Source of the DNA: a virus
DNA length: 17,543 nt
Direction: 5' to 3' (one strand)
Virus genome (UHGV): UHGV-0153102
Numbering within the stretch: the first letter of the stretch is position 1; every line of letters starts with the position of its first letter. The translations under genes and the position numbers were made by a program. The notes below the pieces were generated by a model. It did not search any database. It was given only the letters and a program-made list of their open reading frames with translations, and had not been told where the DNA came from. This document shows positions 1 to 11,035 of this stretch, piece by piece.

Positions 1-393
<393 letters not shown>

Positions 394-395
394 TC

Positions 396-437
396 AATAA
401 AAACACCCGATAGCGAAAGTTATCGGGTGTTTTCTTG
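396..437. terminator. bidirectional intrinsic terminator between convergent atoB and yfaP-like genes
   Basis: Perfect 10-bp inverted repeat ACACCCGATA (403-412) / TATCGGGTGT (421-430) with an 8-nt loop, flanked by AATAAAA on the 5' side and TTTCTTG on the 3' side. Confidence 0.65.
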
Positions 438-466
438 AACATCGACGGCGAAGGTAACCCCATTAA

Positions 467-1255
467 TCACCAGTCAAAACTTTTCACCAGCGTCAGATCG
501 CCAGCATTACGCATCGGTACAATAAATGTTTCCTGTTTCTCATTGACCGATCCTTCATCGGTGATCAGCGTCAGTTGGGCGGTGGTTAATTCCGTTTCGC
601 TGCGCCCACCATAGTAGTTGATATACACCTGATAGCGCCCGTGAATTGGCGCGGGCATGGCGAAAATCTCGGGTCCGTACCCCGTCGTGACATCCATATC
701 CAGTGCACCACTGTTTTTCAGCACGGTGTTACCGTACCAGGCGTGTTCGCCATCGGGCGTAACAACGTGAAGGTCGAGGTCGGTATTGTCCGTATCCCAC
801 GAGAGAACCAGCCGTAAACGTGCACGAATCGTTCCTGTACCCGGCGTTGAGTAAAACTGCATTTTTTGTCGGCTTTGCCCATCCGGGCTGATGACCTGCA
901 CGCTGTTGCTGCCTTCAGTGAAAATATAAGGGCGTGCAAATGAACCATCGGATTCAATTCTCTGCGGCATACTGGCACCGTTGACCACCAGCCGGCCCTG
1001 CTGAACTTTACCCGCCGCAGCATAATTCTTTATTTTGCCGCGGATCTGCGCTGAGATATTTTGATCATCTGCCATGTTGACGGACGACGCCGGGTAATTG
1101 ATCGATTGTGAAAAACTGGCATCTTCGCCCTCTGCCGGATGCCAGCCTGAGAGCGGTGCATCAATCTCGACTTCCTGCACACCTTCACTGTGAGCGACAG
1201 GCGAAAGCGCCACCAGTAACAACGTATAACCAGGTGAATCATTTGATACCGACAA
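467..1255 (-). CDS. yfaP: YfaP-like protein (DUF2135 family); native 5' end apparently lost at the prophage junction
   Basis: 262-codon minus-strand ORF. It has no ATG start; the only candidate is TTG at 1253-1255, which lies inside the first prophage end repeat. The residues after it (SPGYTLLLVALSPVAHSEG) look like a signal peptide lacking its charged N-region. Position after atoB matches the recalled K-12 order. Confidence 0.7.
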   Translation of the reverse strand: MSVSNDSPGYTLLLVALSPVAHSEGVQEVEIDAPLSGWHPAEGEDASFSQSINYPASSVNMADDQNISAQIRGKIKNYAAAGKVQQGRLVVNGASMPQRIESDGSFARPYIFTEGSNSVQVISPDGQSRQKMQFYSTPGTGTIRARLRLVLSWDTDNTDLDLHVVTPDGEHAWYGNTVLKNSGALDMDVTTGYGPEIFAMPAPIHGRYQVYINYYGGRSETELTTAQLTLITDEGSVNEKQETFIVPMRNAGDLTLVKSFDW

Positions 1256-1270
1256 GGGTTTTAGTGAAAG
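1239..1270 (+). repeat. left-end repeat copy 1 (candidate transposase end-binding site, L1 analog)
   Basis: TCATTTGATACCGACAAGGGTTTTAGTGAAAGG; shares TCATTTGATAC...GGTTTTAGT...AAGG with the copy at 1386-1417. Confidence 0.55.
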
Positions 1271-1278
1271 GAGGTGAA

Positions 1279-1312
1279 ATCACCTGTAAGATACTGAAAT
1301 AAAACAGGTGAT
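1279..1312. repeat. 9-bp perfect inverted repeat ATCACCTGT / ACAGGTGAT separated by 16 bp
   Basis: Seen directly at 1279-1287 and 1304-1312, inside the presumed prophage left end. Confidence 0.5.
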
Positions 1313-1332
1313 GGCTAGATGTGCGGATAAGG

Positions 1333-1350
1333 TCTATTTGATACCGATTG
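1333..1350 (+). repeat. left-end repeat copy 2 (shorter core ATTTGATACCGATTG)
   Basis: TCTATTTGATACCGATTG; shares the core ATTTGATACCGA with copy 1. Confidence 0.45.
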
Positions 1351-1385
1351 TGCAATAATTAGTCATTTATTATAAAATCGGCAAC

Positions 1386-1417
1386 TCATTTGATACTGTG
1401 GTTTTAGTCTTTTAAGG
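1386..1417 (+). repeat. left-end repeat copy 3 (candidate transposase end-binding site)
   Basis: TCATTTGATACTGTGGTTTTAGTCTTTTAAGG; same orientation as copy 1. Confidence 0.55.
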
Positions 1418-1470
1418 CGTTCCAAACAATGCGAAATACTCGATATAGTGCAAAATGCGGGCTAATGCTA

Positions 1471-2016
1471 TTAACCCGCTTTTGGTTCTACCGCGTTAGA
1501 TTTGCGACTTCTCTCAGTTTCTTCCAAAATCTCTCTGACGCGTTCGTCAGACATACCTTCAAGCTGTAATGCAGCTATTCTTTTCCTTCCTTCTAAGCGG
1601 ATTAGATCTTGATTTTCAGGCTCTAACAACCGAGCTAAGTACTTGGCTCCATTCAGAACCAAATTTTTCGATAGCTGCTCTAAGTCTTTTTCATCAAGTG
1701 CGCTGATAATCGTCATAATTATCTTCTTGCTTTCATCTTGATTTTCCTTGATCTCACACCGATTCACTTGTGATGCATCACTGAATCCACATAGCCACTC
1801 AACACTTACTCCTTCGATAGACGCAATCTGAAGGGCGACACTTAAGGATGGCTCAGTGCCACGAGACAGATAATTGTTTAGTGTTGAAAATGAAAGCCCC
1901 CAATCTCTTGCTGCAGCTCTGACGCTGCGGGAGCCAATCAGCCTTTTCAGACGCTCAGCAATGCTTTCTTTTCTACCACCAGGAAAAGAAAGAGATGTTG
2001 TTGTTTGCTTGTTCAT
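1471..2016 (-). CDS. prophage repressor (Mu c analog) with an XRE/CI-type helix-turn-helix N-terminus and a helical C-terminal region
   Basis: 181-aa ORF divergent from ner. The motif ARDWGLSFSTLNNYLSRGTEPSLSVALQIASIEGVSVEWL fits an XRE-family HTH. No S24 peptidase-like domain is evident. Candidate RBS upstream of the ATG at 2014-2016. Confidence 0.75.
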   Translation of the reverse strand: MNKQTTTSLSFPGGRKESIAERLKRLIGSRSVRAAARDWGLSFSTLNNYLSRGTEPSLSVALQIASIEGVSVEWLCGFSDASQVNRCEIKENQDESKKIIMTIISALDEKDLEQLSKNLVLNGAKYLARLLEPENQDLIRLEGRKRIAALQLEGMSDERVREILEETERSRKSNAVEPKAG

Positions 2017-2200
2017 TTTCTTTTCTTCCTATCAATTTGAAATTATTAACTTTTAGTGTTGTCAGCAACCATTGATCCACAATAGACAAAAGAAAGATGT
2101 TTTTTTGCTTTACATGAAGCAGAAGTGGATCAATACTTATATCAAACTTGATAACTAAGTTTAGTTATCAAATTTCGTAACTTTTTAGGATAGATGAATC
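2017..2200. promoter_or_regulatory. divergent repressor/early promoter and operator region (candidate transposition enhancer equivalent)
   Basis: 184-bp AT-rich spacer between divergent genes. Contains a 24-bp palindrome TTGATAACTAA-GT-TTAGTTATCAA (2148-2171) and a 10-bp inverted pair ATTGATCCAC (2071-2080) / GTGGATCAAT (2126-2135). Confidence 0.65.
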
Positions 2201-2431
2201 ATGGCGAGAAATGAAGTTAAGCCTGATTGGCATCCTCAAAGAATTTTGGGGGAAGTCAGAGCCAGAGAAGGAAGCATGAGGGCGCTGGCCCGTAAAGCTG
2301 GCGTGGGTCAGAACAATCTGTACAACGCGGTATACCGCCATGTTCCCAAGTATGAGGGGATTATCGCGGAATGCCTGGGGGTGCCGCCCGAGGAGATTTG
2401 GCCCAGCCGCTACATTCGTAAGGTCGCGTAA
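2201..2431 (+). CDS. ner: Ner-like DNA-binding protein (Ner/Nlp family)
   Basis: 76 aa; motifs DWHPQ...LARKAGV...NNLYNA...EIWPSRY resemble Mu Ner; position is immediately upstream of the transposase gene. Confidence 0.85.
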   Translation: MARNEVKPDWHPQRILGEVRAREGSMRALARKAGVGQNNLYNAVYRHVPKYEGIIAECLGVPPEEIWPSRYIRKVA

Positions 2432-2433
2432 TT

Positions 2434-4521
2434 ATGTTTGCTTCAGTCAAAGAACTGGTTGGATTACCGGGGATGCCGGGAACGGAGCAAGGCGTTCGCT
2501 ATTCAATCAGGAAGTATGCAACCAGCGAAACCAGCAGACGCCGCAAGAAAGGCGCTAAAGGTTTTGAATACAGCATTGACTGTTTACCTGAAGTGACACA
2601 GCAGGCATTACGCGAACGTTATGCCCTGCAACTGATGACGCAAAAAGCCGATGAATCACCGGCTCCGGTGGTGACAAAGGCCAGACGCTCGTCTGCCGTG
2701 GTTGATGCGGTGGAGGCATATCGCGGATCACCACAACTGATGGTCGAACGCCTCAATGCCCTGACTGAAAACCAGCGCCAGGTGGCAGACGCACGCATTG
2801 CGATCGTCAGTGAGGTGCTGAAATTCACGCAACAACCCGGTTTCAGCTGCGCTAAAGCTATCCGGTTCATCGTTGACCGCCTGTCACACTCGCAACTGGA
2901 TGAGCGCATTGTGGCAATGGTTGAGATAGCGAACGCCAGAAAGGGAAACAGTCGCGTGTTGAGTGAAATCACGCTGAAACGCTGGATTGCGGCCTTTAAT
3001 AAGGCACAGAACGCTGCTGAACGCCTGCTTTTGCTGGCACCAGGTAAACGCCAGGAAATAAAAGCCGAAGATATTAACTGGTTGCCCGAATTTCTGGCGC
3101 AGTATCGCCAGTCAAACGGCCGACCAATGACCGAGGCTTACGAGGATTTTGTTGCCGAATGGCAGCACCGGCACGCTGATGAGCCTTATATGCTCGATAT
3201 CATGCCGTCTTATGACACCATTCGCCGCGCAATGAAGAAACTGCCGGAAGTGGTGAAACAAAAAGGACGGGTTACCGGCAGTGAATACCGCCAGCTTGAG
3301 GGATTCACGCGCCGCGACTGGTCAAAAATGCCGGTGAATTATGTCTGGATTGGTGACGGTCACGGCATGAAGCTGAAATGCGCGCACCCGGTTCACGGGC
3401 GGCCATTCGCACCGGAAGTGACCTTTGTTATCGACGGTGGCACGCGCTTTGTGGTGGGCTGGAGCCTTGACCTGGCTGAAAATGTTTTCGCCGTAGCCGG
3501 TGCCATACAGCACGGTATTCGCCATCATGGCAAACCGTTTCTGTATTACTCGGATAATGGCTCCGGGGAAACCGCCGACGTCCTGGATAAGGAGATTGTG
3601 GGGATACTGCCACGACTGGGGATTAATCACCCGACAGGGATTGCCGGTAATCCGCAGGGACGGGGCATTATCGAACGGCTTAACCGCACATTACCGATGC
3701 GCATAGCCCGTAAATACCGCACCTATTTCGGGAAAGGAGCAGATCGCGAGACGTTACGTAAAACCAACCGCGATTTACGCTCGGCATTCAGTGCCCTGCA
3801 ACAGGGCAAACGGCTGAACGCCCGGCAGCAGTCAGCGATGCGTGATTTACCGTCCTGGTCTGAACTGATTGATGCCATTCGTGACGGTGTTGAGTGGTAC
3901 AACAACCGGCCGCACGATGAATTACCCATGAAGCCGAACGGTAAACATTACAGCCCGGCGGAGTTCAGAAAAAAACGCCTGGCGGAAGAGGACACGGAAA
4001 TTGAATGGCTGTCCGATGTTGAACTGCGGGATATGTTCCGGCCGATGGTGGAGCGCCCTGTAAGACGCTGTGAAATACGCTGGCTGAATAATATTTACTA
4101 CGCGCCCGAGCTGCGTGACGAGCATGGCCGTAAGGTACTTATCAGCTATGACATTCATGATGCCGAACGAATTACCGTGCGCCGCCCGGATGGCAGCGTG
4201 ATTTGCGAGGCGGTATGGGACGGCAATAAACGCGAAGCCTTCCCTGTCAGCGCGGAATACTACAAACAGCAGCAGCGCCTTAAAGGCATGCGTAAACGCG
4301 CAGAGGAAAAAATCCGTGATGCCGAGGATGAGGTTGTCAACGTGCTGGAGCACAAGCCGCAGGAGCCCTGGCTGGAAAACATATACCGCCCTGTGGGTAA
4401 TACGGTGACCGTTCAGCAACCGGTCGCTGACGATGAACCTGATGAAGAATACGAGCGTAATTTCCAGCGGGGATTGCAGTTGCTCGAAGCGAAATTAAAA
4501 GAAAGTGATCCGCTGGCCTGA
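2434..4521 (+). CDS. Mu-type DDE transposase (MuA homolog)
   Basis: 695 aa. N-terminal Mu-type DNA-binding domain (LVGLPGMPGTEQGV...GAKGFEY). Central DDE core (WIGDGHGMKL...YYSDNGSGE). Start lies 2 nt after the ner stop. Confidence 0.9.
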   Translation: MFASVKELVGLPGMPGTEQGVRYSIRKYATSETSRRRKKGAKGFEYSIDCLPEVTQQALRERYALQLMTQKADESPAPVVTKARRSSAVVDAVEAYRGSPQLMVERLNALTENQRQVADARIAIVSEVLKFTQQPGFSCAKAIRFIVDRLSHSQLDERIVAMVEIANARKGNSRVLSEITLKRWIAAFNKAQNAAERLLLLAPGKRQEIKAEDINWLPEFLAQYRQSNGRPMTEAYEDFVAEWQHRHADEPYMLDIMPSYDTIRRAMKKLPEVVKQKGRVTGSEYRQLEGFTRRDWSKMPVNYVWIGDGHGMKLKCAHPVHGRPFAPEVTFVIDGGTRFVVGWSLDLAENVFAVAGAIQHGIRHHGKPFLYYSDNGSGETADVLDKEIVGILPRLGINHPTGIAGNPQGRGIIERLNRTLPMRIARKYRTYFGKGADRETLRKTNRDLRSAFSALQQGKRLNARQQSAMRDLPSWSELIDAIRDGVEWYNNRPHDELPMKPNGKHYSPAEFRKKRLAEEDTEIEWLSDVELRDMFRPMVERPVRRCEIRWLNNIYYAPELRDEHGRKVLISYDIHDAERITVRRPDGSVICEAVWDGNKREAFPVSAEYYKQQQRLKGMRKRAEEKIRDAEDEVVNVLEHKPQEPWLENIYRPVGNTVTVQQPVADDEPDEEYERNFQRGLQLLEAKLKESDPLA

Positions 4522-4558: not shown

Positions 4559-4603
4559 GAGGTTTCAGTCTCGGAGAATGCTGTCTCAAGCGAGGTGAAT
4601 AAT

Positions 4604-5536
4604 ATGACCGATATTAACGATGTAATCAAGACCATTGATGAACTTATTGATGGCGGCGTACTGACGCAGTATGCCATCGCCAGAGAGGCGGGAATTTCCG
4701 ACGGCACATTATCGGCTTTCCGTAAGGGAAAATATAAAGGCGATAACGCTGCTGTGGCTGCTTCCCTGCGCTCCTGGTATGAGAACTGGAATAAACAAAG
4801 CGCACTGCCGGAACCGCCGCAGTTTGTGGAAACTCAGACAGTCCAGGAGCTGCGCGCACTGTTTCAGGCGGTTCGCCTGATGGGCTGTATTAACGTTATT
4901 GTGGGCGTACCGGGTGTGGGTAAAACGGCCACTGCCCGTAATTACTGCCAGGAGCAACCAAACACCTGGATGATCACCCTGTCACCCGCGCACTCCAGCG
5001 TCACGGAGTGTCTGCTGGAGCTGGCCGATGCGCTGGGGATTGATTACACCCGCGCGAACAAAGGGGCATTATCCCGCGCCATCCGCCGTCGCCTGATGGG
5101 AACGCGTGGACTGGTGATTGTGGATGAGGCGGATCATCTTGGTATTGACGGTCTGGAGCAACTCCGGGCAATTCAGGACGCCACGGGGATCGGGATGGTG
5201 CTTATTGGTAACCCGCGCGGATTGTTTAAAGGTGGACGCCGCGCCTTTGATGATTTATCGCGCCTGTTCAGCCGTCTTGCCCGTACAAAACAACTTCGCA
5301 AGGCCAAAAAGGCGGATGTGCTGGCCATTGCCATGGCGTGGGGGATCAGTGGTGAGGCCGAGCTGGCCGTCATGCAGGCTATCGCTGAAAAGCCGGGAGC
5401 GTTACGCGTTCTGACACATACGCTTAACCAGGCGTGGCTCACCGCCAGCGGTGAAGGCGCGGCGCTGACAGAAAAACATATTAATGCGGCCTTTAAAGAG
5501 GTTTATACCAACCCTGAATTACTCTCACAGGTGTGA
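4604..5536 (+). CDS. DNA transposition protein B (MuB homolog, AAA+ ATPase)
   Basis: Walker A motif GVPGVGKT. Walker B-like VIVDEADHL. N-terminal HTH-like region. GAGGTG RBS 8 nt upstream of ATG 4604; the ORF-track start at 4595 is a GTG inside that RBS. Confidence 0.9.
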   Translation: MTDINDVIKTIDELIDGGVLTQYAIAREAGISDGTLSAFRKGKYKGDNAAVAASLRSWYENWNKQSALPEPPQFVETQTVQELRALFQAVRLMGCINVIVGVPGVGKTATARNYCQEQPNTWMITLSPAHSSVTECLLELADALGIDYTRANKGALSRAIRRRLMGTRGLVIVDEADHLGIDGLEQLRAIQDATGIGMVLIGNPRGLFKGGRRAFDDLSRLFSRLARTKQLRKAKKADVLAIAMAWGISGEAELAVMQAIAEKPGALRVLTHTLNQAWLTASGEGAALTEKHINAAFKEVYTNPELLSQV

Positions 5537-7516: not shown

Positions 7517-8059
7517 ATGGCATATTTTTATTTCAAATTAGACCGTGTGCAGACAAATAAATATTTCACCAAATATCAACAGGCTGTTTTACCGCTACGC
7601 AACAGTATTCTTCGGACATTACTGAAAAATACAGGCGCTGCCGGATTGCGCTTAAAGCCGTTCGCCATGGACAGAATCAGTGAGTTTTATTTTGCCGGTG
7701 CTCTGCCTGCGGGCTGGCGTAAGCGCGATGATGTGGCTTTTATCGGTGGCGGACAGTGCTTTATAGCCAGACCTGATGAGTCATGCCCTGAAGGACCGGC
7801 GATTGCCGCAATGATTGAAGCCGCTGAACGCGAGTTAAGAAAGCGTCCTGATTTCCTTGTCTGGCTCTGTGAAAAGCTGGGGGTAATGAGAATCCCCTCC
7901 ATGTTTAACACGGACTCCTGGTGGACCCCTTCGTTCTCCCGTGATGCCCTGTGCGTGGTGTTTAAAGTGGGCGCTTATGGCAGGGAAATAAACGGATGTA
8001 TTCCTGAAGAATGCCAGGAAATTAAACATTCTGAATATGTGGCGCTGACGGAGGAATAA
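7517..8059 (+). CDS. hypothetical protein (accessory early block)
   Basis: 180-aa ORF with AAGGA RBS, following a 97-bp AT-rich spacer; no family recognised. Confidence 0.6.
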   Translation: MAYFYFKLDRVQTNKYFTKYQQAVLPLRNSILRTLLKNTGAAGLRLKPFAMDRISEFYFAGALPAGWRKRDDVAFIGGGQCFIARPDESCPEGPAIAAMIEAAERELRKRPDFLVWLCEKLGVMRIPSMFNTDSWWTPSFSRDALCVVFKVGAYGREINGCIPEECQEIKHSEYVALTEE

Positions 8060-9992: not shown

Positions 9993-10339
9993 GAAGTTAT
10001 ATTGATAATGAAAAGCTGGAGACAATAAGCGACTGTCTTAGCTTGCTGGCAAAAATCAAAGAAACTATTGAAGAGATTAAATTTCAGCTTGAATACGCAC
10101 CATGTGGCGATGATGCATGGCGTAATGCTGCCAGAAAAGCACTGGCTGTCTTTCAGAAACAACGCCGGGCTGTTGAATACCGCCTTGCTGTATTGCGCCA
10201 GGAGGAAAAGGAAAGAAATATAAGACGTCATGAACGCGTTAATGACTTCCTTGTTCGTGAATTAAAAGGGCGCGTGCCGGAGTCGGTATTTTTTGAATGT
10301 GAGGCTATAGCCCGTAGCAAAGCACTGGAAACAGATTAA
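9989..10339 (+). CDS. hypothetical protein, predicted helical/coiled-coil
   Basis: GTG at 9989 overlaps the preceding stop (GTGA) and has GGGAGG upstream. The ORF-track start at 9947 would overlap the upstream gene by 46 nt. Confidence 0.5.
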   Translation: MRSYIDNEKLETISDCLSLLAKIKETIEEIKFQLEYAPCGDDAWRNAARKALAVFQKQRRAVEYRLAVLRQEEKERNIRRHERVNDFLVRELKGRVPESVFFECEAIARSKALETD

Positions 10340-10354
10340 GCAGGCAGGTGAATA

Positions 10355-10663
10355 ATGAGTATTGAATTAAGATCGTCTTATGAATATCGCAAAATCCTTA
10401 TCGCCGGAGGCATGAAACCGGAAGATGCAGAGAAATTCGTTTCTTTTATGGATAAAGAATGTGACAAGCGGGATATGCCAGAAATTATTATGGATGACAT
10501 GATTCTGGATTCAGCCGTGGCGTTAAGTCCGTTATGGATTGTGCATACTCTTGCGGAAATAGCTAAAAGAAGTGACAAGCAGGCGGCTGTCGCCGCCCTG
10601 CGATTACTGGCTGAATTAAGTTGTTCAGTCAATCCCAATACGTTCTTTGACGAACCTGGTTAA
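10355..10663 (+). CDS. hypothetical protein
   Basis: 102-aa ORF with AGGTGA RBS; its 3' end overlaps the minus-strand moron by 39 nt. Confidence 0.55.
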   Translation: MSIELRSSYEYRKILIAGGMKPEDAEKFVSFMDKECDKRDMPEIIMDDMILDSAVALSPLWIVHTLAEIAKRSDKQAAVAALRLLAELSCSVNPNTFFDEPG

Positions 10664-11035
10664 CATTGATTTGGTAACTTCTTTAATTAGATCAAATGGT
10701 GCGTCTGTAAACTCCTTTTTGATTCTTTCAAGGATTGGTTTTTTTCTCAGGGCGTTAGCTAAATCATGCCCCTGCTGGGTAAGCATAATGGGCGTGTTTC
10801 TGAAACCAACGCCCAGAGAATGGAAAAAGAAACCAATATATTTGGGTGTTTCTGACTGCATATCACCATTAACAATTGAGCCATTATCAGCGAGAAGCAT
10901 AAGATGAAAAACTTTTTTATCCTTTTCCTCTCCTTCTGCCTCAGCCATGCCCAGATCCTGTAGTGTAAGGAAAGGTGTTTCAGCATCCTGAAAAGTTGTG
11001 AGAATACTTAATACTTCATCGTAATCTATTTTCAT
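10625..11035 (-). CDS. opposite-strand AT-rich moron encoding a 136-aa protein of unknown function
   Basis: Only sizeable minus-strand ORF inside the rightward early operon. The surrounding ~400 bp is visibly more AT-rich than the flanking phage DNA. Own RBS (AAAGG) upstream of the ATG at 11033-11035. Confidence 0.65.
   Translation of the reverse strand: MKIDYDEVLSILTTFQDAETPFLTLQDLGMAEAEGEEKDKKVFHLMLLADNGSIVNGDMQSETPKYIGFFFHSLGVGFRNTPIMLTQQGHDLANALRKKPILERIKKEFTDAPFDLIKEVTKSMLTRFVKERIGID

Follow-up and report, generated by a model that had tools for sequence, protein, structure and literature searches.

Three direct repeats at the left end of an Sp18-family prophage inserted in yfaP as putative transposase sites L1 to L3

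Three direct repeats lie at the left end of a Mu-like prophage that interrupts the host gene yfaP. They most probably represent L1, L2 and L3, the putative transposase sites at attL of an Sp18-family prophage, a reading to which we give a probability of about 85%. The DNA analysed is a 17,543-nt stretch, called the window throughout, and all coordinates refer to it.

Results

The host/phage junction and the left terminus

The window starts with the 3' end of atoB, followed on the minus strand by a truncated yfaP (467..1224) that was recognised by Megablast, by comparison with CP024134 and by a Pfam YfaP_C match in the fused ORF. The yfaP gene of CP024134 corresponds to window 467..1243, and the insertion of the phage cost yfaP its first 19 nt, ATG included. 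Megablast matches to 5,425 E. coli genomes stop at window 1224. In strain 14EC017 the locus is uninterrupted and reads ...CCAGTAACAACG|GAAGAAAAATCTTTCGCAT; the start codon of yfaP follows 19 nt past the break. From 1225 the window reads TATAACCAGGTGAATCATTTGATACCG... This empty-site comparison places the host/phage junction at 1224|1225 and gives TATAACCAGG as the 5' start of the phage. The left terminus of the prophage, 5'-TATAACCAG, occupies 1225..1233 on the plus strand. T1225 is taken as the first phage base because several complete genomes have TATAACCAGGTGAATC... attached to host DNA of unrelated sequence; it abuts the bcsA region, a MASE1-domain gene, elyC, a fimbrial usher gene and others. 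At least six genomes carry an identical left end next to host genes that differ, which points to recent mobility, and the same terminal sequence stands beside differing host DNA in four prophage loci (L004, L005, L007 and L009). The Sp18/STEC lineage has TGTAACCAG / TGTAACCAGG in place of the terminus seen in the window.

The first-pass annotation had described a Mu-like prophage left end interrupting a host gene, which the empty site and the Mu-type genes presented below bear out. It had set the terminus itself at the TG at 1235-1236. The empty-site comparison moves it 10 bases further left, to a 5'-TA: bases 1225-1234 are identical next to unrelated host DNA and thus belong to the phage, and the TG corresponds to element nt 11-12, internal to the phage.

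None of the complete E. coli genomes searched carried this yfaP insertion when at least 80% coverage of window 1-2100 was required. A search for contigs with the yfaP-phage fusion ORF recovered this insertion from three metagenome/SRA assemblies (ERZ27300004, ERZ28622596 and SRR29904445), in each case on a contig shorter than 4 kb that ends within the transposase gene.

Genes beside the left end and membership of the Sp18 family

The next four genes lie on the phage side of the junction. A repressor-like gene of 181 aa (1471..2016, minus strand) shows weak HTH_3 / CI-repressor HTH similarity and is annotated as "transcriptional regulator" in L004. It is followed on the plus strand by a Ner-like winged-HTH gene (2201..2431; Pfam HTH_35, E 1e-21), by a Mu-type DDE transposase gene of 695 aa (2434..4521; Pfam Mu-transpos_C, E 2e-17, HTH_Tnp_Mu_1, E 1.6e-8, and weak rve) and by a gene for a MuB-like AAA+ transposition ATPase (4595..5536; Pfam Phage-MuB_C, E 8e-25, and AAA_22). 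With these genes (repressor-like, Ner-like, Mu-type transposase, MuB-like), the DNA is that of a transposable, Mu-like prophage at its left end. The N-terminus of the transposase matched 1tns, the N-terminal DNA-binding fragment of the Mu transposase, with an E value of 7e-6, and a phmmer search of solved structures with the whole transposase found only this MuA fragment and retroviral integrase cores. The window transposase is thus far from MuA itself. The morphogenesis genes here are Mu-like myovirus genes.

By sequence identity, the element in the window is an Sp18-family Mu-like prophage. Over its left 200 nt it shares 88% identity with a prophage present in 233 of 5,426 complete E. coli genomes; the family right end was found in the same number of genomes (233), at many loci. 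The Sp18 ends of O157:H7 Sakai, read directly, belong to the same element family as the window. The transposases of the window and of an Sp18-type phage are 93% identical, and the two phages share no DNA homology over 1563-2549, a region that includes the first ~39 transposase codons. Sp18 starts with TG and carries another immunity module, whereas the window phage starts with TA. At greater distance, the transposase gene shows 81% DNA identity to those of Yersinia phages vB_YpM_5 (YpM5) and vB_YpM_6, and the protein is 47% identical to that of Pseudomonas phage VW-6B and ~30% identical to D3112 A and its group.

Sp18 has been described as an intact Mu-like prophage that is efficiently packaged (PMC2669165), and Sp18-like phages occur at variable sites, also within Stx phages (PMC10132054, PMC7430833). 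A passage of PMC2628397 that cites Morgan et al. 2002 credits Sp18 with six putative transposase-binding sites. The family is known and widespread and its six putative sites have been noted before; to call the end-repeat novel, as had been done on first reading, was an overstatement.

Three copies of a 10-nt word at the left end

Both strands of the window were scanned with TTTGATACYG. Exactly three matches were found, all on the plus strand (1242-1251, 1337-1346 and 1389-1398), against an expectation of 0.06. None of 200 dinucleotide-preserving shuffles reached three matches, and the roughly 50-fold excess is confined to the end. A repeat search of the window yielded a 12-nt family, ATTTGATACCGA, at 1241, 1336 and 1388, with spacings of 95 and 52. 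Both approaches agree with the original observation of three same-orientation repeats between the disrupted host gene and the repressor stop: the copies are placed between the truncated yfaP and the stop of the repressor-like ORF, and their cores fall within the intervals first assigned to them (1239-1270, 1333-1350 and 1386-1417).

Site L1, gtgaatcaTTTGATACcg, occupies 1234..1251 on the plus strand and has its core at element nt 18. It was identified by the motif scan, the repeat search and cross-phage comparison; it starts 9 nt inside the host/phage junction, and its 10-nt TTTGATACCG corresponds to element nt 18-27. L2, aaggtctaTTTGATACcg (1329..1346, plus strand), and L3, gcaactcaTTTGATACtg (1381..1398, plus strand), both identified by the motif scan and the repeat search, have their cores at element nt 113 and 165 respectively.

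The motif proposed in the first-pass annotation was longer than this core, and only part of it is conserved. The TTTGATACYG core stood; the GGTTTTAGT half did not. The latter follows copies 1 and 3 only (1257-1265 and 1400-1408), at an unequal distance from the core (5 nt and 1 nt respectively), and neither copy 2 nor L3 of Sp18 nor any right-end copy has it. Because of this patchy presence and variable spacing, GGTTTTAGT was placed outside the conserved unit and rejected as a conserved second half-site.

The spacer between L1 and L2 (1252..1328) contains a palindrome, AGGTGAAATCACCT, at 1272-1285 and copies of CAGGTGA, as detected by the repeat search. It is kept in Sp18, and a Mu-like spacer is found instead in YpM5 and VL40. 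This spacer may be a packaging or host-factor region. An Rfam scan of 1000-2500 for structured RNA gave no match at E values up to 1, and a terminator and promoter scan found nothing within 1225-1470.

Inverted copies at the right end and conserved geometry

Since the right end of this insertion falls outside the window, the evidence on both ends comes from near-identical and related prophages. The right-end stand-in was L004, a 41-kb prophage locus of strain S1-CAM-01-A whose left end is identical to that of the window and whose shared part is 97.6-98% identical. The 8-mer TTTGATAC occurs seven times in these 41 kb, against 1.0 expected by chance: the left end has three plus-strand copies, the right end three minus-strand copies, and a single copy is internal. 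The inverted copies anticipated at the other end are thus present, and the same arrangement of three direct and three inverted copies was observed in each of L004, Sp18, YpM5 and VL40. Sp18 has L1-L3 and the entire right end in common with the window, the right end being compared through L004 only.

The distances of the cores from the right terminus are identical in the three phages compared. In L004, as in the window, the left cores start at nt 18, 113 and 165 and the right cores at nt 18, 40 and 75, all of them TTTGATAC. In Yersinia phage vB_YpM_5, the left cores are at nt 18, 122 and 164 and the right cores again at nt 18, 40 and 75, also with TTTGATAC; word and geometry are kept despite the diverged surrounding sequence. 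In the VL40 subfamily, where the word is TTCAAGATA, the left cores are at nt 18, 89 and 141 and the right ones once more at nt 18, 40 and 75. L1 and R1 are equally far from their termini, and both the Yersinia phage and the VL40 subfamily keep the position of L1.

A 4-bp target duplication and TA termini

Both junctions were read in 11 independent insertions (nine, plus those of Sakai and VL40), and a 4-bp duplication was found in 11 of 11, in place of the 5-bp duplication that had been proposed. The duplicated sequences are GACG, AGAG, TACG, TAGA, TTAG, TGCG, GATA, TTCG, CGAT, TAAA and TTCA, of which TAAA belongs to Sp18 of Sakai; they directly abut 5'-T(A/G)T...T(A/T)TA-3'. When the bcsA flanks were joined with a single GACG, the resulting sequence matched uninterrupted bcsA of thousands of genomes over 160 of 160 nt. 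A 5-bp reading (GACGT) is possible for L004 if T1 is counted as host, and it fails in the other ten insertions. It fails in the window too, since the host base that follows AACG there is G and not T. A duplication of 4 bp is already annotated in GenBank record LC727895. A literature search for a Mu-like phage with a 4-bp duplication found no such paper, and literal sequence searches of the literature returned unrelated primer lists only.

By inference from these 11 related insertions, AACG at 1221..1224 is the predicted left copy of the target duplication in the window. The right AACG copy would fall beyond the window, and the right junction is predicted to read ...CGCCGCGCTATA-AACG-GAAGAAAAATC, that is ...AATCGGTATCAAAAAAATCGCCGCGCTATA, AACG and then GAAGAAAAATCTTTCGCAT, the 5' end of yfaP. 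Exact scans of genome and metagenome contigs for the right end followed by 0-10 nt and the yfaP 5' end gave no match.

The right termini of all family members examined end in TA-3', and in ...TATA-3' in this lineage, rather than in the CA first proposed. Left termini are TA or TG: TG on the left is found only in the Sp18 lineage (Sp18 and most STEC copies), and the Yersinia phages and the VL40 subfamily start with TA. One could argue from the TG of Sp18 and of most STEC copies, together with the cleavage of MuA at a terminal CA (PMC3145075), that the sites are genuine and that the copy in the window is a dead relic inactivated by its TA left terminus. We consider this very unlikely. The TA-type left end is found, 99.6-100% identical, at many chromosomal sites with intact 4-bp duplications; TA-3' is also the end of every family right end examined; and among the other phages that start with TA, those of Yersinia are listed with a propagation host.

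Joint variation of the site word and the transposase N-terminus

A second subfamily, found in Shigella flexneri SFBU1023, E. coli ECMA0423 and E. coli VL40, has TTCAAGATA rather than TTTGATAC in six of six sites, at equivalent positions. Its transposase is 74.5% identical overall to that of the window. This identity is unevenly distributed, being 38-68% over residues 1-200 versus 85-98% over residues 201-640. In MuA, N-terminal domain I makes contact with the ends and with the enhancer (PMC3145075). Sp18-type phages, for their part, combine the same end motif with a non-homologous repressor/operator/ner module. Since they share the motif despite this other immunity module, the motif tracks the transposase and not the repressor, and this is the strongest computational evidence for the repeats as transposase recognition sites.

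The same observations bear on the idea that the repeats are repressor (immunity) sites or secondary operators downstream of the repressor gene. The repeats do lie directly 3' of the repressor-like gene, and a near-match, ATTTGATAA, is found inside an operator-like palindrome at 2148-2171. However, the motif is unchanged in Sp18-type phages whose immunity module differs, it changes along with the transposase N-terminus, and it is found inverted at the right end, 38 kb away; the repressor-ner intergenic region is without the motif, save one match with one mismatch at chance level. A role in immunity is therefore highly improbable.

To the same degree we doubt that the repeats are packaging (pac) signals for the terminase. 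Packaging of Mu-type genomes begins from the left side (PMC5977238), and other repeated elements are also found in this left end, but a left-only pac signal needs none of the three equally good copies that stand at fixed distances from the right terminus. The first copy, moreover, is at nt 18-27 of both ends, where Mu has its L1/R1 transposase sites, and the L1-L2 spacer is a better pac candidate than the repeats. Finally, an A+T-rich word clustered by chance in non-coding DNA, as the looser 9-mer with one mismatch might suggest (4 found versus 4.2 expected in the whole window), is excluded by the excess of the exact 10-mer over expectation and shuffles and by the conservation of its positions across phages with diverged surroundings.

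Discussion

A working model for the ends

The reading of the three repeats as transposase sites L1-L3 can be developed by analogy with phage Mu (PMC3145075), from which the binding protein, the stoichiometry and the chemistry of the following model are borrowed. The phage's own Mu-type DDE transposase (2434-4521) would bind each site as one monomer through its N-terminal domain, and the three inverted right-end copies, R1-R3, would be bound likewise. Both ends would then be synapsed into a transpososome with the help of the MuB-like ATPase (4595-5536). Nicking of the 3' strand would take place precisely at the termini of the element, which in this lineage read ...TATA-3' on either strand, and the 3'-OH ends would be joined to target phosphates 4 bp apart, which would leave a 4-bp duplication.

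Sp18-family phages might even constitute an undescribed mechanistic variant of Mu, characterised by TA-3' termini, a 4-bp stagger and a six-site word that switches together with ~200 N-terminal residues of the transposase. The sequence facts behind this proposal are solid; the proposal itself is tentative, and we put it at somewhat below even odds. If it were true, the phages would form a natural pair in which to map what sets end specificity and stagger length in Mu-type transpososomes. Mildly new points are limited to the stagger of 4 bp, the termini in TA-3' and the within-family change of recognition word. For transposition biology the interest is modest, and the element is not of a new kind.

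For annotation, the left boundary of the prophage is fixed at 1225 and the right junction is predicted. Sp18-family prophages can be delimited by a simple signature: TRTAACC..., TTTGATAC at nt 18 counted from either end, and a duplication of 4 bp. About 4% of complete E. coli genomes contain such prophages, whose insertion sites include Stx phages and other virulence-related elements.

Comparison with Mu and other transposable phages

The analogy to Mu is one of architecture only. As in Mu, there are three sites per end, with L1 far from L2 and L3 across a long spacer and R1-R3 close together. The TCAY-type cores of Mu start at nt 10, 116 and 154, and the extended unit found here, TCATTTGATAC, begins 3 nt 5' of the 8-mer core, at element nt 15, 109 and 162. 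In both phages L1/R1 have their inner edge at nt 27, at the end of RCGAAAR in Mu and at the end of TTTGATACCG here. The right termini also seem related (TGAAGCGGCGCA in Mu versus TATAGCGCGGCGA here), and the proteins show Mu-type features, namely the C-terminal transposase domain, the HTH_Tnp_Mu_1 N-terminal domain and the MuB-like partner.

The site word, in contrast, is different: TTTGATACYG here versus ...TTCAYT...RCGAAAR in Mu. Comparison with the Mu record confirmed the initial impression that the motif is unlike the 22-bp MuA consensus, which is unmatched here, with no CGAAA half; a weak resemblance to Mu L1 is limited to the outer-half TCAYTTGA. The orientation of the R sites differs as well, all three being alike here whereas R3 of Mu is inverted. 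Mu makes a 5-bp duplication and is cleaved at a terminal CA (PMC3145075); the corresponding features of the present family are 4 bp and TA-3'.

Other transposable phages have their own ends. B3 duplications are 6 bp (PMC8705779). Burkholderia phage KS10 carries family-specific direct repeats, with four putative transposase sites unlike the Mu consensus (PMC2628397). The site sequences of D3112/B3 and of KS10 are unrelated to those described here. As an outgroup remark only, the record of VW-6B seems to be without a left end; its right end carries a different repeat, CAGTCCARAAT, and reads ...GCGCTACA immediately before the last base of the record.

Mu and D108 are near-identical phages that differ in the repressor, in ner and in the 5' end of the transposase gene. 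The relationship between the phage in the window and Sp18 resembles this heteroimmune pattern, in a different phage family.

Spread of the yfaP insertion and comparison with a close relative

The same yfaP-phage junction was found in three independent metagenome/SRA assemblies (ENA ERZ27300004 and ERZ28622596, and Logan SRR29904445), which carry an identical yfaP-phage fusion ORF of 262 aa. The junction is absent from all 5,426 complete E. coli genomes. Such a distribution suggests that a clone bearing the yfaP insertion is in circulation. In the empty-site strain E. coli 14EC017 (L002, 387–1499), atoB is interrupted by IS421. This has no bearing on the end repeats, but the region seems prone to insertions.

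The S1-CAM-01-A prophage is 97.6–98% identical to the window. Compared with it, the window has an additional segment (7520–8054), which nearly matches the extent of an ORF of 180 aa (7517–8059), and is intact at 10042–11006, where S1-CAM-01-A has an ISKpn26 insertion.

Sequences between and beyond the end repeats

The spacer between the left-end repeats L1 and L2 (1252–1328) contains a perfect palindrome, AGGTGAAATCACCT (1272–1285), and repeated CAGGTGA words (copies at 1228–1237 and 1302–1311). Comparison of left ends showed that both elements are conserved in Sp18, whereas in the Yersinia phage vB_YpM_5 and the VL40 subfamily this spacer instead resembles Mu nt 28–70, CCGGGAGGA...CGGGAT...GATGGGAT. 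The spacer may be a packaging site or a host-factor site; in Mu, pac is located in this interval. Between L2 and L3, GTGCAATAATTAGTC (1349–1363) is similar to Mu nt 96–110, GTGCAAATTTTAGTC, which directly precedes Mu L2. A GYSCAA core could be aligned in all five left ends compared.

The right end of Pseudomonas phage VW-6B (MF975721, about 35200–35306), a distant relative whose transposase is 47% identical to that of the window, retains the terminal ...TTTTTCGCCGCGCTACA with a canonical CA, followed in the record by a single further base. Its triple repeat, CAGTCCARAAT, differs from the binding word of the window family. As VW-6B retains the terminal TTTTTCGCCGCGCTACA together with another triple repeat, conservation at the right end seems to be stronger over its terminal ~12 nt than in the binding word.

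Mosaicism of the immunity module

A near-perfect palindrome, TTGATAACTAAGTTTAGTTATCAA (2148–2171), lies between the repressor-like and ner-like genes and adjoins the sole promoter-like match found in the promoter scan (2109–2137). This palindrome is likely an operator.

When the window was aligned to an Sp18-type relative at the DNA level, identity was 81% over 1224–1562 and about 95% from 2550 on, and no alignment was obtained for 1563–2549. The unaligned part spans the repressor body and the operator region as well as the ner-like gene, and extends over the first ~39 codons of the transposase gene. Judged by this alignment, the immunity module is mosaic between the two phages over 1563–2549. 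Since the gap takes in the first transposase codons, the N-terminal part of the transposase, of the enhancer/operator-binding type, appears to travel together with the immunity region. The pair resembles Mu and D108 in this respect, between which the N-terminal part of the transposase likewise moves with the immunity region.
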